Virus record (IMG/VR): IMGVR_UViG_3300047552_000910
Coordinates: 34,930 to 98,929 of that record
Source: a virus
Strand: one strand, 5' to 3'
Length of the DNA: 64,000 bases
The notes beneath the pieces are model-generated. The model did not search any database. It saw only the letters and a program-made list of their open reading frames with translations, and was not told the origin of the DNA. Position numbers and translations under genes: made by a program. The number at the start of each line of letters is the position of its first letter. The stretch's first letter is position 1. Below are positions 1 to 34,361 of the stretch, in pieces.

Positions 1-785
1 ATTGCTGTTTCTATCATTGCTTTATAGGCGTATTCCGGACACAACCCCAACTCCATTTTATAAGCATTAAAACTAATAGAAGCATCGTTGTCGTTGTCTG
101 TTTTCCAATTAGCACTTAATACCCAATTAACTGAATTGTTATTATATTTAAGTTCGCAAAAATCATCAACATCATAAACGCCATCTTTATTTACAACACC
201 ATAATCGGTATCTACGATATTATTGAGATTATGATTTTGTTTATAAGTAAAAGATGTCAGCTCTCCGTTTTTGTAATCAGTTAATGCACAGTAATAACTT
301 AACATGTGAGGAATTAAATCGCGGCTAACTCCGCCGAACGCTAATTCTTTATTAGTAAACCAGCTGCCGGGGTTAGGAATCCTGTTCTTATTATGCCAAG
401 TTACTTTAATAGTTTCGGATAAATTTACTAATTGTTTAAGGTTATTAATCGAACGTCTATATTGGTTGTTCTTAACCATCATAAACCGAGTATCAGGATA
501 ATCTGTTAGCAATCGATGCCACAATTCATGATTTTTTAGACCCGGCTTTTCTATTAACACAATTCGGCACTTGGTACTTATTGCCCTAGCCATATTTTCA
601 TGTAAAAAATTGGGGGCAGCAATAATACCTATGTCGTATTTTTTAATATACGGTACTTGGCTAATTGAAGTATATGTTGGATTTTTAGAAGTATCTGTGT
701 CTACTGTATCTACCTCATACCCTAGCTCGTTGCAAACTGTTTGATATAATTGCCCGATGCCTAATCCGATTATTAAGCAGTTCAT
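1..785 (-). CDS. Gfo/Idh/MocA-family NAD(P)-dependent oxidoreductase (3'-truncated by window edge; not in ORF track)
   Basis: Manual translation from ATG at 785: MNCLIIGLGIGQLY (Rossmann GxGxG)...IIAAPNFLH...VLIEKPG...WFTNKELAFGGVSRDLIPH; no stop before position 1; ATGA overlap with the stop of the upstream TGT-like gene. Confidence 0.8.
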   Translation of the reverse strand, partial: MNCLIIGLGIGQLYQTVCNELGYEVDTVDTDTSKNPTYTSISQVPYIKKYDIGIIAAPNFLHENMARAISTKCRIVLIEKPGLKNHELWHRLLTDYPDTRFMMVKNNQYRRSINNLKQLVNLSETIKVTWHNKNRIPNPGSWFTNKELAFGGVSRDLIPHMLSYYCALTDYKNGELTSFTYKQNHNLNNIVDTDYGVVNKDGVYDVDDFCELKYNNNSVNWVLSANWKTDNDNDASISFNAYKMELGLCPEYAYKAMIETA

Positions 786-2476
786 AGCGAATTCTCCAAT
801 GTATCTAAGTTTTCTTCTTCGTCTGTAGTAAATTCTTCTGAGTGCTCGTCTGCATAAGAAAAAAGTGCATTAAAGCTGGTTGAAGAATTAGTTTCTTTTT
901 TACCTGTTGCGCCACGCGTACCGATAACTTTCGATAATATCCTATCATACTTTTTAATCAATTTTAATGCAGTAGGCATATCAGCAGCAAATATTTGATC
1001 AACTAAGTCACCGATATAAATTCTTTCGTGTACTTCGCTAACTAGCATAGCAGGACAGCTTTGTTTATTTTCATAAACTTGGTTTGCTCGTAATACAGCA
1101 TTCAAGTGGGCATAAACATTATGCCCCATTTGAATTGCATAAGAAAAAGAATCCCAGCTAGTGCTATTTTCTTTTCCTGCTTTATTTAAATCGCCTGGCG
1201 CGTATATACAAACATCTTTTATTTCACATTGGTCTATAACAGGACTAGATTCAAAAATAGGAAAAATGCCGTCTTGAATTACTGCATCTTTAAACAATCT
1301 TGTATCTTTTGCATATTTTTTATCGTCTGCAGACGATACCATTCGATAAACCCACTTCTTTCTATCTTCTAATTCAGTTCGAACATAAATTTGTCCGTTT
1401 GCTGTTGCTAAGAACGGAGATGCACAATCGAAACTAATAGTAAAGTTGGGATTATGATATTTTCTAACGGCTTTTTGAATATCAGTTAAAAAAACAGCCC
1501 ATTCTAATTTAGAAGTACCAAGAAAATGCATCCAATCGTGCTGGCCTTGAATCATTAATCCGTCATCAATAATACGCCTAACCATTTTAATGGCTAATGT
1601 GGGAGAGCACATTAATTGGCCGCCTGCAGCCCACCCATTAAACGCTTTATCACCATATATTTTCGGATCGCAGAAATCTTTCATCTGTACATACCAATTT
1701 TCTGCTTGTGTATGGTTCTCGCCCTGAAGAACATTTAAGAACTTGCAATTACCATTGCGGTTTTTAATAAAGTATTCATTATTATATCGAGTGGCGTTAA
1801 CTGCATCTTGATATGAAGATATGCCCGTTGCGAGCATGCTTGCAGGATCGCGGCAAGTCCATGCAGGAATATCAAGAATCATACCGTAATCCATTAACGA
1901 GTCCATCCATGTTAATACCTGCTCTCGTTTCTTTTGTGCAGAGTCAAGTAGCCCTTGATATGCCTTAGCATGATTAACAGCAGTAGTCTTCACATTACCT
2001 TGCTTAGTAAGAACAACATTGCCAGACTTATCTAAAATCGGTTTTTGCTCGATACCGAGTGCTGCCATTTTAGCCATCTTTTGTTTAACTTCAGTAGAAG
2101 TAGGAGCGCGCCACTCGCCGGCCCAAACACCCTTTCCTATTTGGAACCCACCGGAGTCGCCAATCACAATGGAAGTGTTTTTATTCCTGTTGCGAAACAT
2201 ATCTTCTGTTTGTTCTGGTTTATTTAAATCTAGTTTTGCATGGCCAGCCGAATAGAGGCTCCATTTATAATAAAAAAGACCTTTATCCGGATCTAAGTAG
2301 TTAAGACTTTCCACACCGTTAACAAATGACTTTGGTACTCGTGTATACGGGATATACTCACCAAATCGCTGTTTACCTATAAAAGTGGCGTAAAAGCTTG
2401 ACGTTGCAGGTAAAAAAACAGCATATTTGCTGAGACCATTTTCGTCTAATTGTATTTCAGTTAAGTTAACTTCCAT
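782..2476 (-). CDS. tRNA-guanine transglycosylase (TGT)/DpdA-like base-exchange protein
   Basis: DSGGFQ motif, MILDIP, LNVLQG, HFLG and SFDCASP match the TGT-fold motif order; start placed at MEVNLTE behind a GGAG Shine-Dalgarno (track start 2506). Confidence 0.7.
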   Translation of the reverse strand: MEVNLTEIQLDENGLSKYAVFLPATSSFYATFIGKQRFGEYIPYTRVPKSFVNGVESLNYLDPDKGLFYYKWSLYSAGHAKLDLNKPEQTEDMFRNRNKNTSIVIGDSGGFQIGKGVWAGEWRAPTSTEVKQKMAKMAALGIEQKPILDKSGNVVLTKQGNVKTTAVNHAKAYQGLLDSAQKKREQVLTWMDSLMDYGMILDIPAWTCRDPASMLATGISSYQDAVNATRYNNEYFIKNRNGNCKFLNVLQGENHTQAENWYVQMKDFCDPKIYGDKAFNGWAAGGQLMCSPTLAIKMVRRIIDDGLMIQGQHDWMHFLGTSKLEWAVFLTDIQKAVRKYHNPNFTISFDCASPFLATANGQIYVRTELEDRKKWVYRMVSSADDKKYAKDTRLFKDAVIQDGIFPIFESSPVIDQCEIKDVCIYAPGDLNKAGKENSTSWDSFSYAIQMGHNVYAHLNAVLRANQVYENKQSCPAMLVSEVHERIYIGDLVDQIFAADMPTALKLIKKYDRILSKVIGTRGATGKKETNSSTSFNALFSYADEHSEEFTTDEEENLDTLENSL

Positions 2477-2540
2477 TATTTCTCCGGATATTTCCACTTT
2501 ATTCACAACAAAATATGTTTTTAGTTGTTGACTTACGAGT

Positions 2541-3101
2541 TCATTTCAGTAACTGGGAAGTAAAATCGTCGTACGGAGTATTTTGTTGCGGATCCCCTGC
2601 CCATTCAAACCGAACATTATGCCGCCGGGTTACTGCCCATGCGCAGACAAACACGTAGTCGCTCAAAATATTTAATGCCCGTATATGCAGATCCATATTA
2701 GGATTAGTTTCTTTTAATTTGCAAGCTACTAATTCAGTATGGCGAATAATGCATCTGAGTTGCATTAACTTAGCGTTCTTTTTAGTAGTCCTAATAAAAC
2801 CAGTTAATGGGTTTAGCCGCGGTGCTTCTGCCTTAATTACAGCTTCAAATTGAGCAGCTGACAAATTGATTAAATCTATGTATTTTTGGCTAGTAGGGGA
2901 ATGATGATTTGCACCCAATGCAAACACTAAATCTTGAATCGAATACATATCTGCGGAATAGCTTTGTATCCAATCTAATAGACCAATATATTCGATATTT
3001 AAATCGGTTTTTGGAAATTGTTTATTGCCATTAAACCAAGTAGTGCCATTGTCACCGTATCCTGTTCTAACAACTGTTATTACTTTTTCGGGTTTGTTCA
3101 T
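2541..3101 (-). CDS. Divergent PduO-type ATP:cob(I)alamin adenosyltransferase-like protein
   Basis: TGYGDNGTT (cf. TRTGDxGxT), IQDLVFALGA, RCIIRHTE (cf. RxxxRRAER), LNILSDYVF (cf. LNRLSDxLF). Confidence 0.65.
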   Translation of the reverse strand: MNKPEKVITVVRTGYGDNGTTWFNGNKQFPKTDLNIEYIGLLDWIQSYSADMYSIQDLVFALGANHHSPTSQKYIDLINLSAAQFEAVIKAEAPRLNPLTGFIRTTKKNAKLMQLRCIIRHTELVACKLKETNPNMDLHIRALNILSDYVFVCAWAVTRRHNVRFEWAGDPQQNTPYDDFTSQLLK

Positions 3102-3829
3102 TTGGAATGCGCCGGGAGGATATAATTATAGGTAGTAATGCCGGAATCTACCGTAATTTGTAAGGCACCTGCGTCGGAAATATACATCGTGATATCTCCG
3201 TCTAAATTCAATAAACTTTGAATTCTGTTAATGGGCCAAGCTAGCGTATGCTTCAACGCGCCAGTAATATCACTTTGGAATACAAATTTTCCAGCATGTG
3301 TGGACGCATCACCAAAACTAAACACCAAGTTATTATCACTTGTTGATATTTGGAACACAGTTTCTTCTGTATGCGCAGCCGCTTGATATTTAAACCGAAG
3401 AATACTAGCAGCCGACGGTTTTAATTCGATGTTCCACTTTGCTCCTTTGAATTTTACGGAACGAAGTTTTTCGTTAACAACTTCATGATTCATAAATCGA
3501 TAATCATTCTGGAAATCACCCGAAGCATTCTTAAAATGAATACCTACTGGGACTTCAGTACCATTCTTTTCTCGCGTAATTAAAGAAAGATCAGCAGAAT
3601 CTCGATATTCTCCACACTTTAAATGGAGGTCTAGCTTATTAAGATTAGGCATACCGAAGACGCCGTCGAGTTCTGTAACAGGCTTATGTGTAGTAGCTGT
3701 CATAATAACAGACTTATCTTCGGCCATTGATTCAATCAATGTCTCTGTTGGCGACGCTGTGATTTTAATAAAAGGGAGGAATCCTAAATTGTGAGTGTGT
3801 GTTACTAAATCAAGTAAAAAGTCTTTCAT
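3098..3829 (-). CDS. Putative DNA polymerase sliding clamp-like protein
   Basis: 243 aa, alternating beta/alpha pattern, directly downstream of PolB with a clamp loader in the same window; assignment by size and context. Confidence 0.5.
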   Translation of the reverse strand: MKDFLLDLVTHTHNLGFLPFIKITASPTETLIESMAEDKSVIMTATTHKPVTELDGVFGMPNLNKLDLHLKCGEYRDSADLSLITREKNGTEVPVGIHFKNASGDFQNDYRFMNHEVVNEKLRSVKFKGAKWNIELKPSAASILRFKYQAAAHTEETVFQISTSDNNLVFSFGDASTHAGKFVFQSDITGALKHTLAWPINRIQSLLNLDGDITMYISDAGALQITVDSGITTYNYILPAHSK

Positions 3830-3852
3830 ACAAATGCTCCAAGTTAATGTAC

Positions 3853-3881
3853 AGTATAATTTAATTTATTTTGAATGTCAA
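3853..3881 (-). promoter_or_regulatory. sigma70-type promoter TTGACA-17-TATACT
   Basis: Exact -35, 17-nt spacer, near-consensus -10 upstream of the 3829 start. Confidence 0.75.
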
Positions 3882-3919
3882 ATACTACTTTCTACCGTTA
3901 TATAATAGAAAGTAGTATT
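3881..3919. terminator. 14-bp inverted repeat after the PolB C-terminal gene
   Basis: aatactactttcta ... tagaaagtagtatt immediately after the stop at 3926. Confidence 0.55.
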
Positions 3920-3925
3920 AATTAT

Positions 3926-4909
3926 TTAGGAAAATTCGAATAGAGATTCAAATTCGTTATTTTTCACAGTAGACGCCAAGTCCCAAGATAATACACCAAT
4001 TAGATTATCCAATTTTTTATGAATAATTGCGTTTTCCATTTCGTCGTGTGCAAACGGCAATCCTTTAAACCACGCAGGTAGCCGTAACTCGTCTGTTGGG
4101 TATGCTACACTAGTAAATCCTAAAGGATTATGTTTCAATTTACAAACGATTACTTTTGTTCCGTCTGTAATAGTAGAAGAATATTTGTCGTCGAATAATC
4201 GTTTAAGTGTATTCCAATTAATCGATGCTCTTACATGCCCGGGCATTGTAGATTTACCTACCAATGCTTCTTTATCTTGGTATTTAGTAATGTTATTAGC
4301 TCTCTTTGGGGATCCTTTCTCCCAACCCGGCCGTTCTTTAAATTCTTTTTTGAATTGATTAATATGCTCTAATATCTCAGTTTCTTCGTGCCCTGTTAAA
4401 ACCATCTCCAATACTTCACTCAAGAAATGTTGAATCACTTCTGGGGTATCGGATCTTCTAAGGTCCAGCCCCATTGCTTTAATTTTTCCTGGCTTGCCGT
4501 TTACATCGGTGCGTTTGCCGTCTTTATCGAAATATAAAATAGCATATCGTTTTTTAGTAATAAACAATGCTTTAGAACCCACTAATTCTCTGCCCGCCCT
4601 AATTACTTGTCCTCGAGATAACGGGCAATGAAACGTATTTAACATAAAGTCGGGGAAGCTGTCATTTGTTTCAGAACCAATCTGATCATATAAATTGATT
4701 ACATTTTCTCTGGACCAATTAATTCGTTTAGCATCTATGTCGGTTTTTAAAGTTTGATACGCAGAAAAATAAATGGAATCTGTGTTATGTACTAAAATAT
4801 CATTTGCGAAAAAGAAAGGATCTTGTTCGTCTATGCTTATATCATAAACATAATCATCTACATCGCCTAAACACTCTATACTTTTTATTGTTGTTCTTTC
4901 AATATCCAT
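3926..4909 (-). CDS. polB: Family-B DNA polymerase, C-terminal fragment preceded by C-intein
   Basis: 42-aa IntC ending HN, then TDSIYF (motif C second half), KKRYA and GLDLRRSD. Confidence 0.92.
   Translation of the reverse strand: MDIERTTIKSIECLGDVDDYVYDISIDEQDPFFFANDILVHNTDSIYFSAYQTLKTDIDAKRINWSRENVINLYDQIGSETNDSFPDFMLNTFHCPLSRGQVIRAGRELVGSKALFITKKRYAILYFDKDGKRTDVNGKPGKIKAMGLDLRRSDTPEVIQHFLSEVLEMVLTGHEETEILEHINQFKKEFKERPGWEKGSPKRANNITKYQDKEALVGKSTMPGHVRASINWNTLKRLFDDKYSSTITDGTKVIVCKLKHNPLGFTSVAYPTDELRLPAWFKGLPFAHDEMENAIIHKKLDNLIGVLSWDLASTVKNNEFESLFEFS
4784..4909 (-). mobile_element. Split intein, C-terminal half (IntC, 42 aa)
   Basis: VYDISI...FFANDILVHN/T: intein blocks F and G, His-Asn end, Thr +1 nucleophile. 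Confidence 0.9.
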
Positions 4910-5838
4910 TGTACCACCTTTTCAATAGTAAACTTTTTGTCTAACATAAAGTCTTGTTCCCACACCGTAAGTGCTGAGAATCCTAAATCTGTTACTGTTT
5001 TTATTTTTAACATATCTCTATGTTGTATATCTTTTGCACAACTGCCGCGAATAATTGCAGTATCTGTGTAAATTTTAGGATTTGCGTGCCAATAATCGCC
5101 ATTAAATTCTATTATACAATTTTTATGTTTTATATCATAAATTACATACGTGTTTAATAACGGCGACCATTTTCCGAATGGTTTGTTAAAGCTGGTGTGT
5201 TCTAATTCACCTATGCATTGAATTACTAAGTCAGTAAATTCTTTTTCCATCTTACTAGAATGAGACGTATTTTGCCGGGTTATAATTAGTTGGGCTGCTT
5301 CTTCTTCGGTAATTGCAAGATGCGCCGCTAACAATGCAGGGTTGTGTGGTATTGATTTTTTATGATTAACTTCTAAGTATTTTTGAACCCCAATGTTATT
5401 TCCGTATTTTTTTATAAAATATTCTTTTGTATTTGTGTACCCTTGACGCAAACAATACTTTTCCCATTTTTCGGCGCCAGCAACTTCTCCGTGGCGCGCT
5501 ATCATTTTTTCTAGTGTCTGCGACCTTGATGAGTTATAACTATCGAACTGCTCTTTGCTCCATCCGTATTTTTCTTTTTTATAATCAAAAGAATTTGTTA
5601 TTGCTTGTTTTTCTGTGTATTGCCGCCACCGATCGTTACCGTCAGTGTCCCCGTATTTTTTTATAAAATTTTCTAAAGTTACTGCCTTGGCCTTTGCTGA
5701 TTCCGCGGATATAATTTGTGCGCCAGGGTACGCCAATTTATATTCTCTCCCATTATTAAATCTTCCGGTACATTTATATTTGAAGTGTGTCCATTGGAGC
5801 AGCGGGCTTTCAAATCCGCATTCTAAACATTTAACCAT
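4885..5838 (-). CDS. Free-standing homing endonuclease, Vsr-like (EDxHD-type), between the intein halves
   Basis: C-terminal EKEF...YDIK...IIEFNGDYWHANP...D..K...G...LTVWE; N-terminal CxxC...H...C and repeated (F/K)xxKYG helices; own TAAATA promoter and SD. Confidence 0.8.
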   Translation of the reverse strand: MVKCLECGFESPLLQWTHFKYKCTGRFNNGREYKLAYPGAQIISAESAKAKAVTLENFIKKYGDTDGNDRWRQYTEKQAITNSFDYKKEKYGWSKEQFDSYNSSRSQTLEKMIARHGEVAGAEKWEKYCLRQGYTNTKEYFIKKYGNNIGVQKYLEVNHKKSIPHNPALLAAHLAITEEEAAQLIITRQNTSHSSKMEKEFTDLVIQCIGELEHTSFNKPFGKWSPLLNTYVIYDIKHKNCIIEFNGDYWHANPKIYTDTAIIRGSCAKDIQHRDMLKIKTVTDLGFSALTVWEQDFMLDKKFTIEKVVQWILKEQQ

Positions 5839-5865
5839 ATACTGATACTCCTATCCTTATAGTAT

Positions 5866-8184
5866 TTATGTATTTAAGCAAATTATAAGGTCAGTATCTT
5901 TAATCTCTAGCGGAGTCACTTCTAGCAGGAACCCGGCTCGATCAACCATTACGCTATGATCTTCAGTAACTGTCACAGATTTATCATTTTGCAATGTAAT
6001 TTTATACAACTTCTTTTTAGTTTTGTGCCTCATAACATACGAAATTGTAGACATAACAGGGGAATCTTCAAAAGCATTAAACCCAACTACTTTAGCAAAA
6101 GATTGTACTCCGTATTCTTTTCCGTATTCTATCACATGTTGGCAGCATTGTTCATAGAGCTCTTTAATTGGTATCTGCCCTCCGTCAGTTCTTATCATAG
6201 TGTCGCCAGTAACACTGTCGTTATATTTGACTGATTCCCCTTTATAATCATAAAAGCCTGTTATAATCTCATTAACTTTAGCGGACATGTGCTTAACTAC
6301 CTGTCTGCCAGTAAGAGTAACTGATTGCCCTAACCGTTTGTCAAAGAATCTAGAACCTGCATTGAGTAGCGCGCCGTAAAGGGAATTTAACTGTATCTTG
6401 GTAACCTGTTGGCGTTTATCCCAGTGTTCTTCTGCAACTTTATCTTTCTTTTCAATTGCTTCTTGTAAGTTCTTTTGATATGTTTGCCTATCAGAATACC
6501 ACTTAGTTAATATTCCCGGAATAACTCCTTCCTTGGAATAAGTAAAAATAGTGCCGTTAGCAGAAAGCATATACGGTTGATTCGAGTTATAAATTAGTTC
6601 GTGTATTTCTGCACCTGAAAGGGTATCGGTTGTACCATTCTCCCAGTCTACAGTAATCATTTTACCTTTGTCTTTTTCAAGAACAGCAGTAAATTCTAAC
6701 GATCCAAACAATCCTTCCCATGCGGTTGCAAAGCTTGTACCATTTTCTATTTTATTTTGGATAAAGTTTTCGGTATCGGTTTGTCTAAGTTGTCCTACTA
6801 TTGTTTCGGGACTCATATTCATTGCACGGATAACCGACGGATATAGACTCTTAACATCAAGTAATCCCACCCAATCGTGTAATCCTTTTTTTGGATAAGC
6901 TACATACGCGCCTGCTGCTTGTGTATCTAAATCTTTAGTACGAACACGATCTTTGATACAAAAACCTAGTTTATGAGCTTCGTTGATTATTGCTTGGTCT
7001 GTAGCAGAAACAACGCCCATTGTGGTTGGAATTAATACTCCAATTTCGTGAGCAACCTCGTTAGCAATATCAATAAATTTAAGTTTATTATCAAGTTTAT
7101 TTAGAAGTGCGCAGTCTTGTCGGTTGTATTCGACAAATTTAGCAAAATCATCGTGATACAGTTGATCTAGTGTACCTTCATAAACAGTTTTTCGTTCATG
7201 CAGTTCATATTCTGCAATAGCATCCAATTTATACGAGTGCCGTTCTTCGTAAGTATATTTGCGATACAACTCCAGACTATCTATATGCATTCTTCCTACT
7301 AAGTCGTAAGTAAATGCAGTTCTTCCGTACTTTTCATATTCGCGTTTCTTAGGGAATTGGTCGAATAGACATAACTTCTTAGTATATTCCTTGGATAAAA
7401 TCCGAGTAATCCTATTCACAACATACGGAATATCAAATCCTTCTCCGTTCCAAGCAGAAAGTACATCAACATCTTCGATTAAATCTAGAAATGTCAATAA
7501 CATTTCTTTCTCAGATGTAAAAAGATATGTATTTGGAATATCTTTTATCAATTCAGCAGCAGCTTCCTCAGTTAATGAGGACGGAATCAATGCCAAACAA
7601 ATTAATGCATCGGACCATTGCAGATGAACAGATATTGCAGTAATGGGGAGGAATGCTTCTTGAGAAGCAGCATAGCCAGGTCCTGCTTCTATATAACGGC
7701 ATGTGTTAGCTTGCACCCACTTTTTATCGATATGATCGTAAACTTTATATCGTTCTCTATGAGGAAGTAATCCTAATTCTCGTACAGTAATATCTTTGTC
7801 TGGCGGTGTAATTCTAAGTTTGAAGCCCGACGGAAACGCATACGGTTGGAAATCGGTTTCAATGTCAAAGAAACAGACATTAAGTTTCGGGGTTGGGAGG
7901 TTTGCGTAATATTCCGATAAGCAAGTAAAAATAGGATTTAAATCAGTTTCGAATAACTGCTTAGTAGCGTATGCAGAACGCGCCATTTTAAAATCTTTTA
8001 AGTTTTTGCAAGTAACCTTTCTTACAGCATCTCCATAAATTGATTTATGTTTGCCGTTATGATCTTCTACATAAAAGGAATATTGCACAGGGTGGGTATT
8101 AAAAACACGATTACCATCTTTATCTCTGCCTACTACATGAATAATATCCGTGGTTTTATTGTGCCAGCAATTAACGTAATTCAT
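5866..8184 (-). CDS. polB: Family-B DNA polymerase, N-terminal fragment (3'-5' exonuclease + motifs A/B) ending in N-intein
   Basis: FFDIETD, WNGEGFDIPY, YNRQDC, DVKSLYPS, KIQLNSLYG, then YND/SVTGDT intein start; start moved to MNYVN behind GGAG (track start 8223). Confidence 0.92.
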   Translation of the reverse strand: MNYVNCWHNKTTDIIHVVGRDKDGNRVFNTHPVQYSFYVEDHNGKHKSIYGDAVRKVTCKNLKDFKMARSAYATKQLFETDLNPIFTCLSEYYANLPTPKLNVCFFDIETDFQPYAFPSGFKLRITPPDKDITVRELGLLPHRERYKVYDHIDKKWVQANTCRYIEAGPGYAASQEAFLPITAISVHLQWSDALICLALIPSSLTEEAAAELIKDIPNTYLFTSEKEMLLTFLDLIEDVDVLSAWNGEGFDIPYVVNRITRILSKEYTKKLCLFDQFPKKREYEKYGRTAFTYDLVGRMHIDSLELYRKYTYEERHSYKLDAIAEYELHERKTVYEGTLDQLYHDDFAKFVEYNRQDCALLNKLDNKLKFIDIANEVAHEIGVLIPTTMGVVSATDQAIINEAHKLGFCIKDRVRTKDLDTQAAGAYVAYPKKGLHDWVGLLDVKSLYPSVIRAMNMSPETIVGQLRQTDTENFIQNKIENGTSFATAWEGLFGSLEFTAVLEKDKGKMITVDWENGTTDTLSGAEIHELIYNSNQPYMLSANGTIFTYSKEGVIPGILTKWYSDRQTYQKNLQEAIEKKDKVAEEHWDKRQQVTKIQLNSLYGALLNAGSRFFDKRLGQSVTLTGRQVVKHMSAKVNEIITGFYDYKGESVKYNDSVTGDTMIRTDGGQIPIKELYEQCCQHVIEYGKEYGVQSFAKVVGFNAFEDSPVMSTISYVMRHKTKKKLYKITLQNDKSVTVTEDHSVMVDRAGFLLEVTPLEIKDTDLIICLNT
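5869..6216 (-). mobile_element. Split intein, N-terminal half (IntN, 116 aa)
   Basis: Starts SVTGDTMI (block A, Ser1), contains VTVTEDHS (block B TxxH), ends at a stop codon with no endonuclease in frame. Confidence 0.88.
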
Positions 8185-8195
8185 TCTTCTCTCCG

Positions 8196-8217
8196 CGTGA
8201 CCTTTGCGGCGGCCACA
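8196..8217 (-). promoter_or_regulatory. Hairpin just 5' of the polB Shine-Dalgarno (candidate translational operator)
   Basis: GUGGCC-GCCGCAAA-GGUCAC stem-loop 2 nt before GGAG. Confidence 0.45.
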
Positions 8218-8275
8218 TACCACTCTTTGTGAACCTTTAATTCGTCAGGTATTGTCAGGCAATACCGTCGAATCG

Positions 8276-8533
8276 TCAGATTCGTTTAGTAATATCTAGT
8301 ATAGCTTCAATTTCCTCCCAATCTGAATTATGAGAATCCCAATCACCTTTATGTGCTATTCTAATAGCCTTATTAATAATTGACGGTTTAATTTGGAGTT
8401 CTTCAGCCACTGCTTTTACAGTATCTCTAAGTCCGTCTTGAAGATCTTGCACTTCTCTTAGAACAGTAGAGCCCTCAGTAATTAGTCTTTCTAACTTCTT
8501 TTTTTCTTCTTCGCCATAAGCACGACTAGTCAT
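8276..8533 (-). CDS. T4 DsbA-like small dsDNA-binding protein
   Basis: 85-aa helical protein with L..LI.E...L.E...L...LRD..KA..EEL.IKP.IINKAI.I.HK pattern resembling DsbA. Confidence 0.55.
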   Translation of the reverse strand: MTSRAYGEEEKKKLERLITEGSTVLREVQDLQDGLRDTVKAVAEELQIKPSIINKAIRIAHKGDWDSHNSDWEEIEAILDITKRI

Positions 8534-8636
8534 CGTTTACTGTCTCCTAAATGAATATTTTAAGGCATAACAACTGTTATGTCTATTTATTGTTTGTTTT
8601 TGTAGGAAGTAACCCGTTTAAACAGGTTATATTTGA

Positions 8637-9404
8637 TTAGTTAAGCCATGCAGCAGGAGTCCACTCAACAGCAGGAATATCATTCACAAACATATCGAGT
8701 TTTTCCATAGCATTTCTTACTTGTGCAGTCTTACCAGCAGAAGATGCAGCAGCTTGATCTATTGCAATTCTAGCATCATTTACTAGTTTTTGAATTTCAG
8801 GACTAACGGTTTGCTTTGAAACGGGCTGTGTTGCACTAGATGCAGGTTGTGGGCTTGTTCCAGTAACCGGTGCGGTAGGTGCGCCGCTTCCGCCTTGTTG
8901 TGGGCTTGTGCTTGTAGCCGATTGCGTGCCGGTGCCTAATTTAGAAGTAACGGTGTCTTTGTATTTAACAGCCGCGGTAATAATTCCCGCACCGATTAAT
9001 GCCTTTTTCCAACTAGAATCTTGTATTAAAGTTCTCAATAAAGATAGTCGTGAGATTGGAGGCACTGGAGGCACGGGCGGCCGGGGCGGCGGAGTTGGCG
9101 CGGGAGGCAATTGGGCTCGAGTTACACCTCTTAATGCTGCAGGATCGGTGCCTGCTATTCTGTTATTTTGCGTATCAATCCAATGATTGCCATTCCATTT
9201 ATAATCTATTGAATCGGTGCCTCTTCTTATCTCGCCAACCACCGGAGGGGGTAGTGGCCCGCGAGAAAACAATGATTTAATTTTTCTGCCCGCAGTTCTA
9301 AGAGTGCCTGCTCCAACTTCGTTTAGCACTTCTTTTGATTCAATGTTTCGCAATCTACTTTGCAATAAAGACATCGATTCGGTTAGTGTAGGTTGATTAT
9401 TCAT
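8637..9404 (-). CDS. Hypothetical protein, probable virion/head-internal (Pro/Thr-rich linkers)
   Basis: 255-aa ORF with LTES and LNE motifs near the N-terminus. Confidence 0.5.
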   Translation of the reverse strand: MNNQPTLTESMSLLQSRLRNIESKEVLNEVGAGTLRTAGRKIKSLFSRGPLPPPVVGEIRRGTDSIDYKWNGNHWIDTQNNRIAGTDPAALRGVTRAQLPPAPTPPPRPPVPPVPPISRLSLLRTLIQDSSWKKALIGAGIITAAVKYKDTVTSKLGTGTQSATSTSPQQGGSGAPTAPVTGTSPQPASSATQPVSKQTVSPEIQKLVNDARIAIDQAAASSAGKTAQVRNAMEKLDMFVNDIPAVEWTPAAWLN

Positions 9405-9413
9405 ATGTTAGCT

Positions 9414-10475
9414 TTATACTTCTGCAATCGGCAATTTAACACCGGAATTTATAAACTCTTGTTTTAACGCAGCAACCAATTCCTCAGTTTTAGCAGTCGG
9501 GGGCAGATGCACGTTGTTTGCTGCAAGGAATTGTCGCACAGCTTCGTCTACAACAGGTATAGATCCTGTAATTGGTACATTGGCTGCAGGTTTACCCGAT
9601 GGCATTTTAATCGGTGTAGTATCTGTTGCTGTTTGTTTGGGCAAGTCTTTTAAATTTGGGGTTGGGTTATTTGTAATTGGTTTAGGTTCGTTGGTTTTTA
9701 ATGGTGCAGTTGTTACGGAATTATCTGTCGGTAGTGCTAATGCTTGAATTGTTTCTGGTTGTTTTGCATCTCTATATGCATAATCAACTACTGCTCCTAC
9801 AATTTCTGAAACATCGTCTCCTGCGGCATAATCAGCAGCAAAGCCCCCGGCAATAAATCCAGGCAGGGCACCGATACCACCCCCCAATGCACCGCCAATA
9901 ATTCCGCCAAACACGCCCCCAACCCAAAACACACCATATTCGGCGACTAATTTAGCTATTATTTTAGTAACTTCTTGCTTGTATTGCTGTTTTGTTAATG
10001 TTTTTGGTAATTCTTCTATTTGCGTCCAGCCGGCATATACTCCCATTGCTATTCCAACAGAAGGACCTAACATCTTTTTGCCGCCCCGCTTAATCTTATC
10101 CCACATTCCGGGTTCGTCGGCTTCGTTAATGTCATATCCAAAACTTTCTATTAATTGGTTTGCAATATTGAATTCAAACGACTCATTTGGGTTGTTACGG
10201 ATGGCGGCTTGCAGTTTATTATAAATATTATTCAGCCTAGTAACATGCCTATCCATTTCAGATGAGTTATCAGTTCCTGCTTGCCGTGTCGGCTTACCTT
10301 TATTAGGTGCACGACCGAGTATATACGGGTCAGTCAAATCCGGTTTCCCACCACCACGAGTCATCCATCGTTGATCCTCTGGACTTAATGATTGATAAAT
10401 TCGGGATTGGTCGGGGTCATCCTCGTATGGGTTAGATATTTCGTCTAATTTAGAAATGAGTTGTTTAAAATTCAT
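9414..10475 (-). CDS. Hypothetical virion-associated protein with Gly-zipper/TM segment
   Basis: Start MNFKQLISKLDEI; GGVFGGIIGGALGGGIGALPGFIAGG hydrophobic Gly-rich stretch. Confidence 0.55.
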   Translation of the reverse strand: MNFKQLISKLDEISNPYEDDPDQSRIYQSLSPEDQRWMTRGGGKPDLTDPYILGRAPNKGKPTRQAGTDNSSEMDRHVTRLNNIYNKLQAAIRNNPNESFEFNIANQLIESFGYDINEADEPGMWDKIKRGGKKMLGPSVGIAMGVYAGWTQIEELPKTLTKQQYKQEVTKIIAKLVAEYGVFWVGGVFGGIIGGALGGGIGALPGFIAGGFAADYAAGDDVSEIVGAVVDYAYRDAKQPETIQALALPTDNSVTTAPLKTNEPKPITNNPTPNLKDLPKQTATDTTPIKMPSGKPAANVPITGSIPVVDEAVRQFLAANNVHLPPTAKTEELVAALKQEFINSGVKLPIAEV

Positions 10476-10476
10476 A

Positions 10477-10983
10477 CTATTGTTCCGGTGGCGGTGGCAA
10501 TGCTTTTTGCTCGCCGACAATAGCGTCATATTGATCCATTGTTAAAACATCGTGTTCCTTAGAGAATTCAATTAGTTTATCTGCAACATTATGTAGATCC
10601 ATATCTGTTTCTGCATCTTCTTTTGCATATTCTAATAAACGAATTAATAATGGAACATCTACCCGAACTGTATCAATAGAATCGTTCACTTCTGCTGATT
10701 GAGAATAGTTATCATCTTCTCGTAATTTAATTCGATTGACAATAGCTTTAGCATGTTCGTGTGTTTTAGCTAACTTATTCTGTTTAACAACAGCATTTTC
10801 GTTTTCTATTAGTTTTATATACTTCTTAGTGATACTATTTTTTGGTTTTGCAGCAATATCTGCATTTTGATATTGCTGCATAGCCATTCTAACGGACAAA
10901 CTAGTACCTTCGTGTAACTGACTATTCTTTTTAGCGGGTTTATCACAAGAATCTATTACTTGCAGTAGTTTCTTCAAGTCCAT
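10477..10983 (-). CDS. Hypothetical protein (head-internal-like)
   Basis: 168-aa ORF in tightly packed run; MDLKKLLQVID start. Confidence 0.6.
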   Translation of the reverse strand: MDLKKLLQVIDSCDKPAKKNSQLHEGTSLSVRMAMQQYQNADIAAKPKNSITKKYIKLIENENAVVKQNKLAKTHEHAKAIVNRIKLREDDNYSQSAEVNDSIDTVRVDVPLLIRLLEYAKEDAETDMDLHNVADKLIEFSKEHDVLTMDQYDAIVGEQKALPPPPEQ

Positions 10984-10984
10984 G

Positions 10985-12001
10985 TTACATTCCAGAAAGG
11001 AATCGCATCTCGTCTAATGAAAATTCCTTGGGCGGTAACTTATCGGTAAACTGCTCAGGCGGCACTACGGCTTTTTCCAAGCCGCCATCTCCCATTACAG
11101 GACCTAATCCGTCATTTAGGCGATTTAGTAATGCCTGTATTCGACGTTCTATTTGATCTAAGTGTGCAGTACCTTGATATTTTTGCTTCATATTTAAAAG
11201 CTTTGCCATCTGGTCAACAGATTGTGCCCACTCCTCGGGTGTTTTATCGGCGCCAAATGCTTCGCCCATACCAGAGTCAGCAGGATCAGCAGGTACAGCA
11301 GTATCGCCTGCTGGATTATATGTCGGATAATCGGTATTTTCCTTGATAGCCTTTTGTTTTGCTTTGTTCCAAATAGCCGATCCTGCTACTGACTTTGGGT
11401 CTTTCTTAGGTGCGGTTTTTGATGTTACTGGGGTTTTTGCTAATGCAGTTCTTGCAACGCCTGTCTTCTTTGCTAACGTGTCTTTTGCAGTAGTTAGCTT
11501 CTTTGGAGTTGCAGGTTTCTTTGGCAGTACCTTTGTTGCATTCTCATCTAAATCGTCTTTTTTATCTTTAGTATCGGCCTTAGCTGCGGGCTTTTCTTTA
11601 GTGATTTTATCTGCTTGGGCGATTTTAATCTTAGCTAACTTCTCTTTAGCCTCCGTTAGCTTATTTTTGAGTTCTAGCTTTTGGGATTCGTTATACATAT
11701 CGGAATCTTCAATACGTTTACCGTATTCTGAGAACTTCATCTCGTATTCAAGGTAATGATATACACTAGCGATATAATCCGCCGCTTTTGTGATTTTTGC
11801 TTGTACCCAACCTTCTAATTGGTCTTCATCGTTAATCTTTTCGTATAACTTATAGCTATACTTAGCCAATTTAAATAGATCAGCCTTTGCCATAGCACCT
11901 TCGTCGTCCCGAATTTCGTTATCTAACCCAACATCATCCACTGATACATCAGGCGCTTTTTCGTCAAAATCGAAATCAAAATTTTCAAACTCATTAAACA
12001 T
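10985..12001 (-). CDS. Hypothetical protein (prohead core/scaffold-like)
   Basis: 338 aa, acidic N-terminus, EGWVQAKITKAADYI helical block, Lys-rich linker; GGTAAATA upstream. Confidence 0.55.
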   Translation of the reverse strand: MFNEFENFDFDFDEKAPDVSVDDVGLDNEIRDDEGAMAKADLFKLAKYSYKLYEKINDEDQLEGWVQAKITKAADYIASVYHYLEYEMKFSEYGKRIEDSDMYNESQKLELKNKLTEAKEKLAKIKIAQADKITKEKPAAKADTKDKKDDLDENATKVLPKKPATPKKLTTAKDTLAKKTGVARTALAKTPVTSKTAPKKDPKSVAGSAIWNKAKQKAIKENTDYPTYNPAGDTAVPADPADSGMGEAFGADKTPEEWAQSVDQMAKLLNMKQKYQGTAHLDQIERRIQALLNRLNDGLGPVMGDGGLEKAVVPPEQFTDKLPPKEFSLDEMRFLSGM

Positions 12002-12059
12002 GGTTTACTCCATCCTATATCGTGTATTTACCGTTTTTTACGGTAAAACTACAAAGTTT

Positions 12060-13043
12060 TTACTTGCGTTTAGCAGGCCCACCAAAAATACTAGTGCCTT
12101 TTAAATCAATTCCGTTTTTTGCAACACCGGCCTTTGTTTTTGGTTGAACTACTTTTGGTTGCGGTGGTGATTTGGTACCAGATTGCCCAGGAGCACCAGT
12201 ATAGCTCTTATTTCTTCGTGCAGCACCGGGCGAAATATGCGGATTTGGTATGGAAGCAATGTTAGCAGAGCTAGTTGCGCCTGCTGTAGCAGTTTCTTTA
12301 ATGGGATTGCCCGGAACCGCAGTGTTTACTACTGGTTTTTTGCGAGTCATCGCTCCGGGTGTTGCTACTGTTAGTCCTGGAGCACGTAATCTGTACTTTT
12401 CATTAATATTTTCTACACGAGAGTCAAAAACTAAGTTATAGAATTGTTTATTACCGAGTCTATTTGCTTCTTTAATATAATACCGGCCGTGTTCTATTAA
12501 ACCAGCTGCTAATGCATCGGGTCCAGACATTGAAAATGCATATAATGGGTTTGCAGCACTTGCAAACCTGTCTCTAATAGGTTTAAGTCCGGGTTCTGGG
12601 CCAAACGATAATATAAGTTTTGGTCCTTCAACAATATATGCAAATGTACTTTCAGGATTAGTCACTAACTCAGTAGCAAATTCTACGTTAAAGTTAATTT
12701 GCGAAGGTCGATTACCGGAAACTTTTGCGTACTCTTCCTCTTGGGCTGCTTTTTCTAGTTGTTGTTTCTCTAAGTGCTGATCCACTGCTAAACGAATATT
12801 AGCAGTTGCTTCTTTTCTAGTAGCACCGACTGCCTTAACTATAATTTTACCTTTTGGTGTAATTTTTTGTGCCCACGCATTTACTTGATTATTACTATCT
12901 GGGAACTTTTTGACAAAACAATCAAATTCGTTATACTTACCCAAGTCAATTTTCATCATGTTTTGTGGAACGCTGTCCGGCTTCCATGCAACTTCTTCGA
13001 GGTCGGAATCGATATCCTCTAATAATAGTTCTGATATTTTCAT
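12060..13043 (-). CDS. Hypothetical head-internal protein
   Basis: MKISELLLE N-terminus; low-complexity C-terminal module after IKE. Confidence 0.55.
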   Translation of the reverse strand: MKISELLLEDIDSDLEEVAWKPDSVPQNMMKIDLGKYNEFDCFVKKFPDSNNQVNAWAQKITPKGKIIVKAVGATRKEATANIRLAVDQHLEKQQLEKAAQEEEYAKVSGNRPSQINFNVEFATELVTNPESTFAYIVEGPKLILSFGPEPGLKPIRDRFASAANPLYAFSMSGPDALAAGLIEHGRYYIKEANRLGNKQFYNLVFDSRVENINEKYRLRAPGLTVATPGAMTRKKPVVNTAVPGNPIKETATAGATSSANIASIPNPHISPGAARRNKSYTGAPGQSGTKSPPQPKVVQPKTKAGVAKNGIDLKGTSIFGGPAKRK

Positions 13044-13046
13044 TTA

Positions 13047-13313
13047 TTAAGTCTCCGAGTGGTTTCCAAACCATAGTTCGAACCACTCCGGGCAACCTGG
13101 CTTGATATTTTGTTCTTTTTGAATTTGGCTTTTGTTAGTTACCTTAATTACCGGTAATTGTTGATTTTTATAATCAGCTAACGCTTGTTCAGAACCCAAT
13201 CCGCCTAATTGAGAAACACTTTTTAATTGATGTACAGGATCGTCGGGCGATAAGTAACAATCAGTTGGGTCTTCTTTGTGTAAGTCTGCCGTAGTAATTC
13301 TATATTGTTTCAC
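13047..13313 (-). CDS. Hypothetical protein
   Basis: 88-aa ORF, tightly packed, C-terminal IKPG..EWF.LWF. Confidence 0.6.
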   Translation of the reverse strand: MKQYRITTADLHKEDPTDCYLSPDDPVHQLKSVSQLGGLGSEQALADYKNQQLPVIKVTNKSQIQKEQNIKPGCPEWFELWFGNHSET

Positions 13314-13316
13314 TTC

Positions 13317-14348
13317 TCAGACTCCGTATTTGTTTTTATTTCGTTTTGCAACAGGACTTTTACTATTTGTGCTAGGCAATTCTTTACTGCCGGCAGTAGT
13401 ACAACTTGACGATTTCACACCAAATGACTTTTCTGCACTCTTTCGAATTTCTTTATCTCCATCACTATAATCAATCATTACAAGTTTAGATCCGAGTGGT
13501 CCTTCTTGGGGAAGATTAGAGGCAGGGCTGCGAGCAAGTGCTACACCAAATCGATAAGACAAATACGGATGATTATTATTATCTAAGTGGGAGTATGAAT
13601 GCATACCAGGTGTCGCATCTTTTACGCTATTTTTTAATTGCGTTTTAGCTTCTGATAAAGAAACTTCTAATTCAAGAAATTTGTCTTTTAAAGATGGATT
13701 TGAAGAGATGTCTTCTTGTGCTTTTGCTCTTAGTCTTTCAAAGAACTCGCCTTGTAATCGGGTTTCTAGTGCTTGTTCTAATAAAAATACACCTAGATGA
13801 ATAGTATCGGGATTATTCATCCATTTTTCAAATTGTTTATGTTTTGGAGAGTGGAAACCAACTTTATCAACAAACTTAAACATTTCGGCGAAGCCAATGT
13901 TGGTTGCGTACACTGCTTCCAATAAAGAAAACTTTTTAGTTATTACTTTTTTTGTTTCTTTTATTGAAGGTATTGAATTTGGTGGTTTTTCTTCTTCTTG
14001 ATAGTGTTCTAAAATATCAGCTTTTAACTGCTTGCATACTTTAACTAATATTTTAGTATCTAATTCGTCAGGCAATTCTTTTATTGGGTATTCTCTTGTG
14101 TATTCATTGTAGCTATTAATTACTGCTGATTTAAAGATTGCAGAATTAAAACTTTTTTTACTTTTTAACGCAGCAACACATTTAACTACAACCGGATATA
14201 ATTGATTACGATAAACTTTGTCGTTGTTATTCATGAAATAAACAAGATCATCAACTAAATCATAGTTTATTTCGTTCCCATCGTCTTTTCCCTCAATATA
14301 ATCGGTATCGATAAAATGATTTTCGCGTAATAATTCTATAAGGTTCAT
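13317..14348 (-). CDS. Hypothetical modular head-internal protein
   Basis: MNLIELLRE start; internal LLE/A and LSE/A boundaries; late promoter upstream. Confidence 0.55.
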   Translation of the reverse strand: MNLIELLRENHFIDTDYIEGKDDGNEINYDLVDDLVYFMNNNDKVYRNQLYPVVVKCVAALKSKKSFNSAIFKSAVINSYNEYTREYPIKELPDELDTKILVKVCKQLKADILEHYQEEEKPPNSIPSIKETKKVITKKFSLLEAVYATNIGFAEMFKFVDKVGFHSPKHKQFEKWMNNPDTIHLGVFLLEQALETRLQGEFFERLRAKAQEDISSNPSLKDKFLELEVSLSEAKTQLKNSVKDATPGMHSYSHLDNNNHPYLSYRFGVALARSPASNLPQEGPLGSKLVMIDYSDGDKEIRKSAEKSFGVKSSSCTTAGSKELPSTNSKSPVAKRNKNKYGV

Positions 14349-28007: not shown

Positions 28008-28172
28008 TTAATTTGACCAGTGTTGAATAATTCCGGCAATAATAGTCAAGTTAGTAATTAAATATATTAGAATTATCATAGTTCGGACGATAGCAATTTT
28101 ATCGGCTTCGGCATCATCCGAACTTGCTTTTTCACCAAGGGACTTGGCCCATATTCTCCAAATTTGTTTCAT
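28008..28172 (-). CDS. Small membrane protein, 54 aa (not in ORF track)
   Basis: MKQIWRIWAKSLGEKASSDDAEADKIAIVRTMIILIYLITNLTIIAGIIQHWSN; ATGA-coupled to the queD stop. Confidence 0.7.
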   Translation of the reverse strand: MKQIWRIWAKSLGEKASSDDAEADKIAIVRTMIILIYLITNLTIIAGIIQHWSN

Positions 28173-28720
28173 TCGCCTGTATATTTACAATGCGATTTTG
28201 CAGTTTCCCACAATTCTACTGATACAACAGTAGCAAAGTCTTTAATTTGCGATTGCACATATTGTTTAATATGTTTACAAATATTTTCAGAAGTAGGAAC
28301 AAAATCAACCAATACAAACGAATCAACAAATTCATCCATTAGCGTATCTGCATCTAACGGTAATGCTCCGGAGCACAACTCTCCGAGATTTGTAAAATTT
28401 AACAACGGACCAGGAGCCCATTTCATCCCTGTAATTGTACGGAATAACGGATCGTTAACATCGATCATAAACTTATGATCTAGTACTTCGTCGACAAACT
28501 TTTTTACGAAGTTTAAGTTCTTAAAATCTGTAACCATTCCAGACTGATCTAATTTATCCGATCCAAGATGCACTTTAATCGTATAGCTGTGGCCGTGAAG
28601 ATGTTTGCATTTTGTGTACGTATCGATACTAAGCTCTGGATTATTTAGTTGTTGTGCCCAAACACGATGCCCCATTTCAAAATTAAAACTTTTTGATATT
28701 GTCCACTTATAGTCGTTCAT
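28169..28720 (-). CDS. queD: 6-carboxy-5,6,7,8-tetrahydropterin synthase (QueD/PTPS)
   Basis: F.FEMGH, KC.HLHGHSY, GMV.DF, LDH, PTSENI, ELWET. Confidence 0.9.
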   Translation of the reverse strand: MNDYKWTISKSFNFEMGHRVWAQQLNNPELSIDTYTKCKHLHGHSYTIKVHLGSDKLDQSGMVTDFKNLNFVKKFVDEVLDHKFMIDVNDPLFRTITGMKWAPGPLLNFTNLGELCSGALPLDADTLMDEFVDSFVLVDFVPTSENICKHIKQYVQSQIKDFATVVSVELWETAKSHCKYTGE

Positions 28721-33027: not shown

Positions 33028-34361
33028 TACAGCTTTTCACCTGGTTGGAAGCCACGAAAACGAGAAAATCTCGGAAATCTAATACTATATGTGTTGTCTT
33101 GGTTTTGCGTTACAGCATCCCCATAGCACTCGATAATTTGCCCAATAAGGTCGCGCTTATGCTGCCAAAAATCAATACGATCATTGTCAGACAATCCACT
33201 GCCAACGTTAACTTGAATAAGTCTTCCTTCATCAATGCCCTTGCAAACCATTGCTCCAAGTCGTCCTGCATTCTTACCTGTGCCTTCTTCAACATCTATT
33301 ATCTCCAAATCTACAGAAATTACTGGCTTTAGCTTTAGCCATGCTGTACTTCTTTTACATTCATACGGAGCAGTTGGATCTTTAATTAGCAATCCTTCGT
33401 ATCCGTTGTCTAATGCTAGCTTGTTTATTTCCGTAAACTTAGTTTTACCGTCTTCAGTATCAAGATTTACTGTTTCTTGCCCTAACAGTTGGACATTAGG
33501 CAGTTGTTCTGATAGCGGAGTGTACCAATCTCTCAAATCATTAGAACGTTGTGTTTGTGATACTTCGTAAACACCACGTTTAAACTCAGTTAATGGAATC
33601 ATGTCAAACAAGTGAAGTACTGCGTCGCTTGTTTCTACGTTTTCTTTTCGTCTAAGTTGTTTCATTAAATCCTGGAAAGAACTTGACATAATTTCGCCGT
33701 CGAATACCATTGGTTCTTTAATAGTATCACTAATCGTACGAAATTGCTCCGTAATCTTATTAAAGTTTACTAATTCTTTTCCATTACGAGAAAATTGCAT
33801 AACATTATCAGGATACACAATAGTCAATACTCGTGTTCCGTCAAGCTTGGTTTCAATAATCTTTTCACCACTTAGCTTTGATTCGTGCTTTTTAGAATCA
33901 AACGCGAGTTGACATTCGAACACTGGAATAGTGTAGTTAGGATTGATATTCTTAACTACCTTATTTATAGTAACCTCGCTTAGTCCCGCCCGCAAGTCTT
34001 TAATAAGAATACGGCGATACCAATCGTTCCATTGTTCAATAGTTGATAGTTTCATTGAAACGTTAATTAAGTCGCGAGCAGCATTGCCCGTAACGTCCCT
34101 GTTACTTAGTGCTCGCAGTTCCTTTAAAAACAATGCCCAGTTATATCCAGGGCCGCTTGGTCCTTTATGGACTGGGATTTGCTTAACACCAAATGTTACT
34201 AACGAGTCTAATGCCAGTTTAAAACCGAGAAACAATTCGTTATTGTTTGCAATTGCTTCTCGTTCAATAATAGCCTCTTTAGCCAAACGAGAAGAAGTAC
34301 TTTCTAGTTCTTGGATAACAGACCATGCTTGTTGCATTTTAAAATCTCGATTTAGTTTCAA
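33027..34361 (-). CDS. lig: ATP-dependent DNA ligase
   Basis: ETKLDGTR (motif I), FDGE, EGLLIK, WLKLKP, VGSG, RFPRF. Confidence 0.92.
   Translation of the reverse strand: MKLNRDFKMQQAWSVIQELESTSSRLAKEAIIEREAIANNNELFLGFKLALDSLVTFGVKQIPVHKGPSGPGYNWALFLKELRALSNRDVTGNAARDLINVSMKLSTIEQWNDWYRRILIKDLRAGLSEVTINKVVKNINPNYTIPVFECQLAFDSKKHESKLSGEKIIETKLDGTRVLTIVYPDNVMQFSRNGKELVNFNKITEQFRTISDTIKEPMVFDGEIMSSSFQDLMKQLRRKENVETSDAVLHLFDMIPLTEFKRGVYEVSQTQRSNDLRDWYTPLSEQLPNVQLLGQETVNLDTEDGKTKFTEINKLALDNGYEGLLIKDPTAPYECKRSTAWLKLKPVISVDLEIIDVEEGTGKNAGRLGAMVCKGIDEGRLIQVNVGSGLSDNDRIDFWQHKRDLIGQIIECYGDAVTQNQDNTYSIRFPRFSRFRGFQPGEKL

Follow-up and report, generated by a model that had tools for sequence, protein, structure and literature searches.

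A new, very common and probably DpdA-type transglycosylase subfamily in a DpdL-type phage gene island with a conserved glycosyltransferase-like gene

We analysed a phage gene for an unusual transglycosylase-like protein of 574 amino acids (aa), located near one end of a 64,000-nucleotide stretch of viral DNA (the window; bases 34930-98929 of the 98,929-base IMG/VR record IMGVR_UViG_3300047552_000910, which is estimated to be 28% complete). We consider it likely, at a probability of roughly 0.7, that this protein acts on DNA as a DpdA-like guanine transglycosylase and belongs to a QueC-less island of the DpdL type whose product may be a further-decorated base. The core of the finding is a new, very common DpdA-type subfamily within such an island, accompanied by a conserved glycosyltransferase-like gene. 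A preliminary description of the window had noticed a gene with the fold of tRNA-guanine transglycosylases (TGTs) in a deazaguanine-pathway context, an observation that we confirmed. It had interpreted the gene as part of a possible new hypermodification pathway with a Gfo/Idh/MocA dehydrogenase and a PduO-like enzyme, an interpretation that was partly supported. The window contains the following features.

3..785, minus strand: Gfo/Idh/MocA-family oxidoreductase (Gfo), 288 aa in all, ending 81 bases left of the window; assigned from the Pfam domains of its relatives
782..2506, minus strand: TGT-fold, putative DpdA-like DNA guanine transglycosylase, 574 aa; predicted structure and hhalign
2541..3101, minus strand: PduO-type adenosyltransferase-like gene, 186 aa; Pfam Cob_adeno_trans, E 2.5e-17
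3098..3829, minus strand: gene for a 243-aa protein between the PolB and TGT-like genes, a presumed clamp; position and conservation across loci
3926-8223, minus strand: PolB, family-B DNA polymerase, split by an intein and a homing endonuclease; Pfam and PHROG
3926..4909, minus strand: C-terminal PolB gene (IntC and extein), with the C-terminus ...EFESLFEFS; Pfam and PHROG
28172..28702, minus strand: canonical QueD, with the motif CKHLHGH, present in the window as had been noted

The 574-aa frame starts with GTG. An alternative ATG lies ten codons on, at 2476, and is preceded by a GGAGA Shine-Dalgarno sequence, which makes 564 aa the likelier length; the earlier figure of 565 aa was therefore about right.

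Fold and catalytic residues

Annotation searches against Pfam, PHROGs, NCBIfam and PDB sequences, run with the single protein and with a 94-member family profile, returned no match for the TGT-like protein, and the Pfam TGT model (PF01702) matched nothing across the record even at E 10. The family itself is very large. A word-indexed search scored 7,951 relatives and an exhaustive search gave 847 clusters at 50% identity; at 90% identity the clusters number at least 7,900. None of the relatives carries a name or a Pfam domain.

Conservation analysis and AlphaFold2 modelling used 94 family representatives obtained by clustering at 50% identity. The resulting model (pLDDT 91.6, pTM 0.90) was compared with the PDB using Foldseek, which found 185 matches at E<=0.001; among the matches listed, 50 of 50 were tRNA-guanine transglycosylases. 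VIA-align to the Thermotoga TGT (2ash) gave a Z-score of 18.5 and an rmsd of 4.3 over 304 residues, nearly the entire Thermotoga enzyme. The predicted structure thus contains the (beta/alpha)8 barrel of TGTs, on which the assignment had been set in advance to stand or fall. When the family profile was aligned to E. coli TGT by hhalign, a score of 90.8% was obtained and the motifs DSGGFQ, LDIP, NVLQG, AAGG, HFLG and FDCASP fell into register. Three of these motifs carry the catalytic aspartates, and a fourth region is specific to the clade.

2141..2158, minus strand: DSGGFQ motif, residues 117-122; D117 corresponds to the general acid/base Asp, aligned to DSGGFQ of E. coli TGT
1937..2110, minus strand: clade-specific insert, residues ~133-190, predicted helix and beta-hairpins; model and family length comparison
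1865..1876, minus strand: LDIP motif; D212 aligned to the base-recognising Asp in FDE of E. coli TGT
1415..1432, minus strand: FDCASP motif; D360 aligned to the nucleophile Asp in FDC of TGT

D117, S118, G120 and D360 are invariant in the 94 relatives, and conservation of D212 reaches at least 90%. In TGT and in Salmonella DpdA (PMC10164549), aspartates in these three roles make up the catalytic set; Asp95 of the Salmonella enzyme is by analogy the counterpart of D117. The structural zinc motif of TGTs (CXCX2CX22H, or CxCxxC) was found in none of the 94 family members. It is equally missing from 9g DpdA1, VH7D DpdA2, the ACP17 enzyme and phiST DpdA3, so that its absence is compatible with membership among phage DpdA proteins.

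The insert of ~55 aa after DSGGFQ, described earlier as basic, proved to be real: the spacing from Q122 to W200 is 77 residues here versus 18-39 in 91 of the 94 representatives, which makes this protein ~40-55 aa longer than most relatives in this region. It is present in three representatives and predicted to be folded (pLDDT 96-98), and is merely mildly basic (10 K/R versus 5 D/E in 66 aa).

Kinship with known DpdA proteins

The proposed kinship with DpdA was borne out by profile comparison. Aligned by hhalign to single sequences, the family profile scored 96.3% against VH7D DpdA2, 96.6% against the ACP17 protein ASD50403 and 85.7% over 83 columns against phiST DpdA3 (CGPG_00065), which ranked 30 in BFVD with E 0.03; no match to 9g DpdA1 was obtained. 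Against a profile of six DpdA2 members the score rose to 97.9% (E 4.5e-13, 188 columns). At the BLAST level, tblastn gave no link to DpdA2 of nt-1 and VH7D in either direction. Given this blindness of BLAST next to the high profile score, we treat the family, at the level of sequence, as a separate subfamily nearest DpdA2 rather than as a member of it.

The DpdA2 proteins of Vibrio phages VH7D, nt-1 and KVP40 and of Acidovorax phage ACP17 (ASD50403, which the DpdA tables of 2019, lacking PA5oct, class as DpdA2) resemble the protein studied here in their TGT barrel, in lacking the CxCxxC zinc motif, in the shared motifs DSGG, LD/FDE, QG and (S/F)(Y/F)D, and in being encoded among FolE, QueD and QueE. 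VH7D DpdA2 places preQ0/preQ1 in plasmid DNA (PMC10516641). In ACP17, X1 and BUCT-ZZ01 the DpdA2 gene also has the same partners as here, namely DpdL and a protein resembling GT-B-fold glycosyltransferases (GT-B-like), and in ACP17 a 166-aa protein as well. The protein studied here differs from DpdA2 in being 100-150 aa longer, in its own insert after DSGGFQ and in a polymerase-like tail peptide.

A more distant system with the same logic is that of Cellulophaga phage phiST, which makes 2'-deoxy-7-deazaguanosine (dDG) with FolE, QueD, QueE, DpdL and a very divergent transglycosylase (DpdA3), again without QueC (PMC10516641). Its DpdL is homologous to the one found here (36% identity), its transglycosylase, at 259 aa, is weakly related, and the 12-kb stretch that we examined held no GT-B-like, 166-aa, Gfo or MDR homologue. 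The fold and the three aspartates also link our protein to tRNA TGT and to bacterial DpdA (Salmonella Montevideo; PMC10164549), and it is from these features that we infer its double-displacement chemistry; it lacks the structural Zn site and has no DpdB partner.

A QueC-less deazaguanine island in conserved order

Left of the window, the 574-aa gene is followed in the direction of transcription by Gfo (288 aa), MDR (306 aa), a 166-aa protein, a dCMP-deaminase-like gene, DpdL (126 aa), a 254-aa gene on the opposite strand, an 83-aa open reading frame (ORF), a GT-B-like gene (365 aa), a 109-aa ORF, a Gpt-like phosphoribosyltransferase (PRTase), HIT and FolE, and then by a nuclease, a 297-aa radical-SAM QueE-like protein, a methyltransferase and FEN/RNase H. 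Three of these genes are placed as follows on the record.

Genome 33456-33956, minus strand: 166-aa protein; conserved in 72 related loci, PA5oct and ACP17
Genome 33061-33450, minus strand: dCMP-deaminase-like gene, between the 166-aa and DpdL genes; in 0 of 83 related loci
Genome 26463-27356, minus strand: QueE-like radical-SAM gene; matches to five QueE models

FolE was identified at E 1e-47 and the PRTase by PF00156 (xanthine PRTase-like, E 1e-12). The QueE-like protein has its cysteines arranged as C31-x3-C35-x38-C74, with a ~38-aa insert where canonical QueE has CxxxCxxC. DpdL is a T-fold protein whose LGYPHRHIF segment carries the DpdL signature LxxxHRHxF, and it shares 53% identity with ACP17 DpdL. 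FolE, the QueE-like gene and DpdL lie within 11 kb of the transglycosylase and QueD 26 kb from it; co-encoded genes for 7-deazaguanine synthesis, by which phage DpdA proteins are recognized, are thus present. The preliminary description had proposed to look left of the window for folE, queE, queC and sugar enzymes. Both folE and queE were there, as were candidate sugar enzymes, and queC was not found on the 28%-complete record. FolE, QueD, QueE and DpdL without QueC are the combination also seen for dDG synthesis in phiST (PMC10516641).

To describe the island across phages, we compared its proteins by tblastn with 80 related IMG/VR loci, which had been found by a single-protein scan and whose transglycosylases are 52-69% identical to the one studied here. 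The stable order was DsbA-like, PolB, 243-aa, TGT-like, [Gfo-MDR], 166-aa, DpdL, 83-aa, GT-B-like, 109-aa, [PRTase and/or HIT], FolE, QueE, 139-aa and FEN, where brackets mark optional genes. Counts per gene refer to 83 loci, many of them incomplete.

243-aa protein: 79 of 83 loci
166-aa protein: 72 of 83
DpdL: 65 of 83
GT-B-like: 57 of 83
FolE: 37 of 83
Gfo: 26 of 83
MDR: 25 of 83
HIT: 23 of 83
PRTase: 21 of 83
QueE: 20 of 83
PduO-like: 0 of 83
dCMP-deaminase-like: 0 of 83

The island also has a cultured representative. In the Pseudomonas jumbo phage PA5oct (Wroclawvirus) we found the order PolB, 243-aa homologue, small ORF, EST35_0316, 0317 (GT-B-like), 0318 (DpdL) and 0322 (QueE), in which EST35_0316 is a transglycosylase 29% identical to the protein here. 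Gfo, MDR and the 166-aa gene form a contiguous block in PA5oct (0362-0364), separated by 27 kb from the transglycosylase. A PduO-like gene is absent, and all of these genes except QueE are annotated as hypothetical. PA5oct DNA resists restriction enzymes that cut at G-containing sites, from which a modified G was inferred (PMC12191111). The same study notes QueE and a PTPS and reports restriction of the phage by nucleases that recognize modified G; it neither identifies the base nor names a transglycosylase (PMC12191111).

A polymerase-like peptide in the transglycosylase tail

The C-terminal PolB gene ends in ...NNEFESLFEFS. A similar peptide, STSFNALFSY, occurs in the transglycosylase, in a tail (residues 531-557) that is disordered in the AlphaFold model.

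860..877, minus strand: SFNALF peptide in the disordered tail, resembling the PolB C-terminus EFESLFEFS

A T/S-F-x-x-L-F peptide is kept in both PolB and the transglycosylase at ~45 distinct loci, PA5oct included, while the rest of the tail is variable, and in 560-aa forms of the transglycosylase it is the very C-terminus. The polymerases of T4 and RB69 bind the gp45 clamp via such a C-terminal peptide. The shared peptide suggests that the transglycosylase probably acts on DNA at the replication fork.

The gene between PolB and the transglycosylase had been described as a sliding clamp. PolB as a neighbour was correct. The 243-aa protein had no Pfam match and a PHROG of unknown function, and clamp identity found no support either in a PDB profile search or in hhalign comparisons with T4 gp45 and with the 9g clamp. 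The PA5oct annotation gives its homologue as a structural protein of the virion, found by mass spectrometry, which would be odd for a clamp.

Accessory genes of the island

The GT-B-like protein is the conserved candidate for a sugar step. Its Atlas structural neighbours (TM 0.88-0.96) belong to clusters named glycosyltransferase family 1 (GT1), and members of its family gave sub-threshold Pfam matches to six glycosyltransferase families, with PF00534 matched by 5 of 28 members and none above the cut-off. A conserved E-x8-E segment (QETLGIS..YEG) resembles the EX7E motif of GT4 enzymes. No PDB sequence match was found, and hhalign against T4 beta-glucosyltransferase gave no match. The gene accompanies DpdL in ACP17, X1, BUCT-ZZ01 and PA5oct, whereas pf16, Moby and VH7D, whose loci are of the QueC type, lack it there.

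The 166-aa protein lacks Fe-S cysteines; 28 of its residues are invariant, and many of these are polar. Atlas structural neighbours were uninformative. The best structural matches of its AlphaFold2 model (pLDDT 87) were three QueE structures (Z 5.9-6.0), which we take as a lead only, hhalign giving no support.

Gfo matched the Pfam GFO_IDH_MocA models, for the N-terminal Rossmann domain and the C-terminal domain, below threshold (22.8 and 19.9 bits versus cut-offs of 24 and 27; E 1.5e-4). It has a GLGIGQ glycine motif and 1433 relatives, and most of those among the matches listed carry PF01408. MDR, a zinc-dehydrogenase-like protein, matched ADH_N (E 1e-11) and contains GVCRSD and GHEGLG, the catalytic Cys/His-Glu signature, together with the nucleotide motif GSGFLA; its database matches are limited to the N-terminal domain. 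In the PA5oct MDR homologue (5867-6769 of the examined stretch) GVCRSD is changed to GVSNND and GHEGLG to GCESVG, so that the catalytic-zinc Cys and His are replaced and the family may not be one of standard zinc alcohol dehydrogenases.

The two genes are always paired and in the same position, in about a third of the loci (26 of 81); the closest transglycosylase relatives (66-67% identity) lack both. The ATGA coupling of Gfo to the transglycosylase reported earlier is present in the sequence, the Gfo start lying within the stop codon of the 574-aa gene. It is not a conserved feature, since ORFs of 71-171 aa intervene between the two genes in other Gfo-bearing loci, and in PA5oct the block stands 27 kb off. 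Gfo, MDR and the 166-aa protein therefore behave as a unit of the system that need not adjoin the transglycosylase, and we downgraded the Gfo/MDR pair to an optional tailoring module. Its simplest reading is a sugar-donor pathway tailored by Gfo and MDR; a cyclitol-derived substituent, as proposed in the preliminary description, is possible. In the Stenotrophomonas phage Moby, an annotated inositol-3-phosphate synthase, a cyclitol enzyme, lies between FolE and QueC/DpdA2 (520-1770 of the examined stretch), a curious parallel.

Proposed pathway and alternatives

The likeliest product of the island is a DNA 7-deazaguanine, possibly decorated with a sugar. FolE, QueD and the QueE-like radical-SAM enzyme would convert GTP to 7-carboxy-7-deazaguanine (CDG). 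Since no QueC is on the record, we assign the next conversion to the DpdL-type T-fold protein, which would decarboxylate CDG to 7-deazaguanine, as proposed in the literature. In newly made phage DNA, the transglycosylase would then replace guanine with this base through double displacement, with D360 as the nucleophile and D117 as the acid/base, and would probably dock on the replisome via the F-x-x-L-F peptide of its flexible tail. A further substituent, in the simplest case a sugar, would probably be made or modified by the GT-B-like and 166-aa proteins, joined here by the optional Gfo and MDR, so that the final base may not be plain dDG.

Taken to its full extent, this pathway would be an undescribed purine hypermodification, which we put forward tentatively: a 7-deazaguanine bearing a sugar or sugar-derived, possibly cyclitol-like, group, inserted behind the fork by a replisome-tethered new DpdA subfamily, with the group added by the GT-B-like enzyme and lineage variants arising through the optional Gfo, MDR and 166-aa proteins. 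It is also possible, in our view with similarly modest odds, that the base is plain dDG as in phiST, with other targets for the GT-B-like, Gfo, MDR and 166-aa proteins, such as a sugar of the host envelope, a metabolite or a different nucleic acid. The gene set here is that of phiST dDG synthesis (PMC10516641), and two thirds of the loci do without Gfo and MDR, which in PA5oct lie far from the transglycosylase. Yet the GT-B-like and 166-aa genes hold a fixed place between transglycosylase, DpdL and FolE in 57-72 loci, such partner genes recur beside the DpdA2 transglycosylases of ACP17, X1 and BUCT-ZZ01, and phiST, the one phage with measured dDG, has no GT-B homologue in the 12-kb stretch.

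A pre-replicative route appears improbable. The Gpt-like PRTase would make a nucleotide of CDG or 7-deazaguanine (compare TubE in tubercidin synthesis) that, once reduced and phosphorylated, reaches PolB as a deoxynucleoside triphosphate, leaving the TGT-like enzyme to proofread or salvage. PRTase and HIT genes do lie within the island, BUCT-ZZ01 also has a PRTase, and tubercidin clusters, with PRTase and CDG and without QueC, provide an analogy (bioRxiv 10.64898/2026.04.15.718813). The PRTase is, however, lacking in many loci whose sequence covers its position, as well as in the examined 19.5-kb PA5oct stretch, whereas the transglycosylase is universal and keeps all catalytic residues and a replisome-type tail. 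That the enzyme modifies host or phage tRNA instead of DNA, as the preliminary description had allowed, would fit its TGT fold and catalytic residues, and its best structural matches are tRNA enzymes. We consider this very unlikely: no tRNA genes were found on the 98.9-kb record, the gene sits among replication genes and shares its tail peptide with PolB, its nearest relatives are the DNA-acting DpdA2 proteins, the Zn motif of tRNA TGTs is missing, and PA5oct DNA is restriction-resistant at G sites (PMC12191111).

Several points weigh against our interpretation of the protein as a DNA-acting DpdA in a sugar-decorating island. The activity of the subfamily is a predicted one, and its sequence relationship to known DpdA and TGT proteins is remote, seen by hhalign alone and not by BLAST. 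The GT-B assignment stems from sub-threshold matches and predicted-structure neighbours, and 7-deazaguanine has no obvious C7 handle for a sugar. The clamp identity of the 243-aa neighbour found no support in our searches. An F-x-x-[LF]-F peptide in the last 45 residues occurs in 2 of 120 ORFs of the genome versus ~1.9 expected by chance, so that cross-locus conservation alone carries the tail argument. DpdL and DpdA of phiST and ACP17 gave no dDG when expressed in E. coli, and DpdL activity is unproven (PMC10516641). That 2023 study suggested that further enzymes are perhaps required for dDG (PMC10516641), and the GT-B-like and 166-aa genes are obvious candidates for such additional enzymes.

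Because the subfamily is invisible to Pfam, PHROGs and NCBIfam, annotation misses what would be a major system of DNA modification in aquatic and jumbo phages, carried also by PA5oct, a cultured phage-therapy candidate. To our knowledge, the 7-deazaguanine DNA bases described so far all have small C7 groups, and glycosylated DNA bases are known on pyrimidines; our literature search found no description of a glycosylated deazaguanine in DNA. The polymerase-type tail also suggests a route to complete G replacement, in which modification would be coupled to replication.

Genome-specific insertions

Two new points emerged from the comparison of loci, the optional, block-wise behaviour of Gfo/MDR described above and the dismissal of the PduO-like gene as a partner. 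The protein is a recognizable PduO-like one (PF01923, 63.9 bits versus a cut-off of 24), with the ATP motif RTGYGDNGTT (T-x-x-G-D-x-G-x-T), and falls below the NCBIfam equivalog cut-off (42.5 versus 108). No B12-dependent ribonucleotide reductase that could be its client was found by PF02867 on the 28%-complete record. In many loci nothing lies between the 243-aa gene and the transglycosylase, and in at least 20 the two genes overlap by 4 bases; elsewhere unrelated ORFs of 41-317 aa fill this slot, and the PduO-like gene is its occupant in this genome. Besides itself, it has seven relatives in 5.8 billion proteins, none of them in phage or IMG/VR collections. We therefore rejected it as a partner of the pathway, a role the preliminary description had given it: absent from all 83 loci, rare and in a variable slot, it is an accessory insertion, a passenger unrelated to the system.

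The dCMP-deaminase-like gene, found at its position in none of the 83 related loci, is likewise another genome-specific insertion in the island. Genome positions 4-13689, at the left edge of the record, are taken up by one open frame of 4,561 codons.

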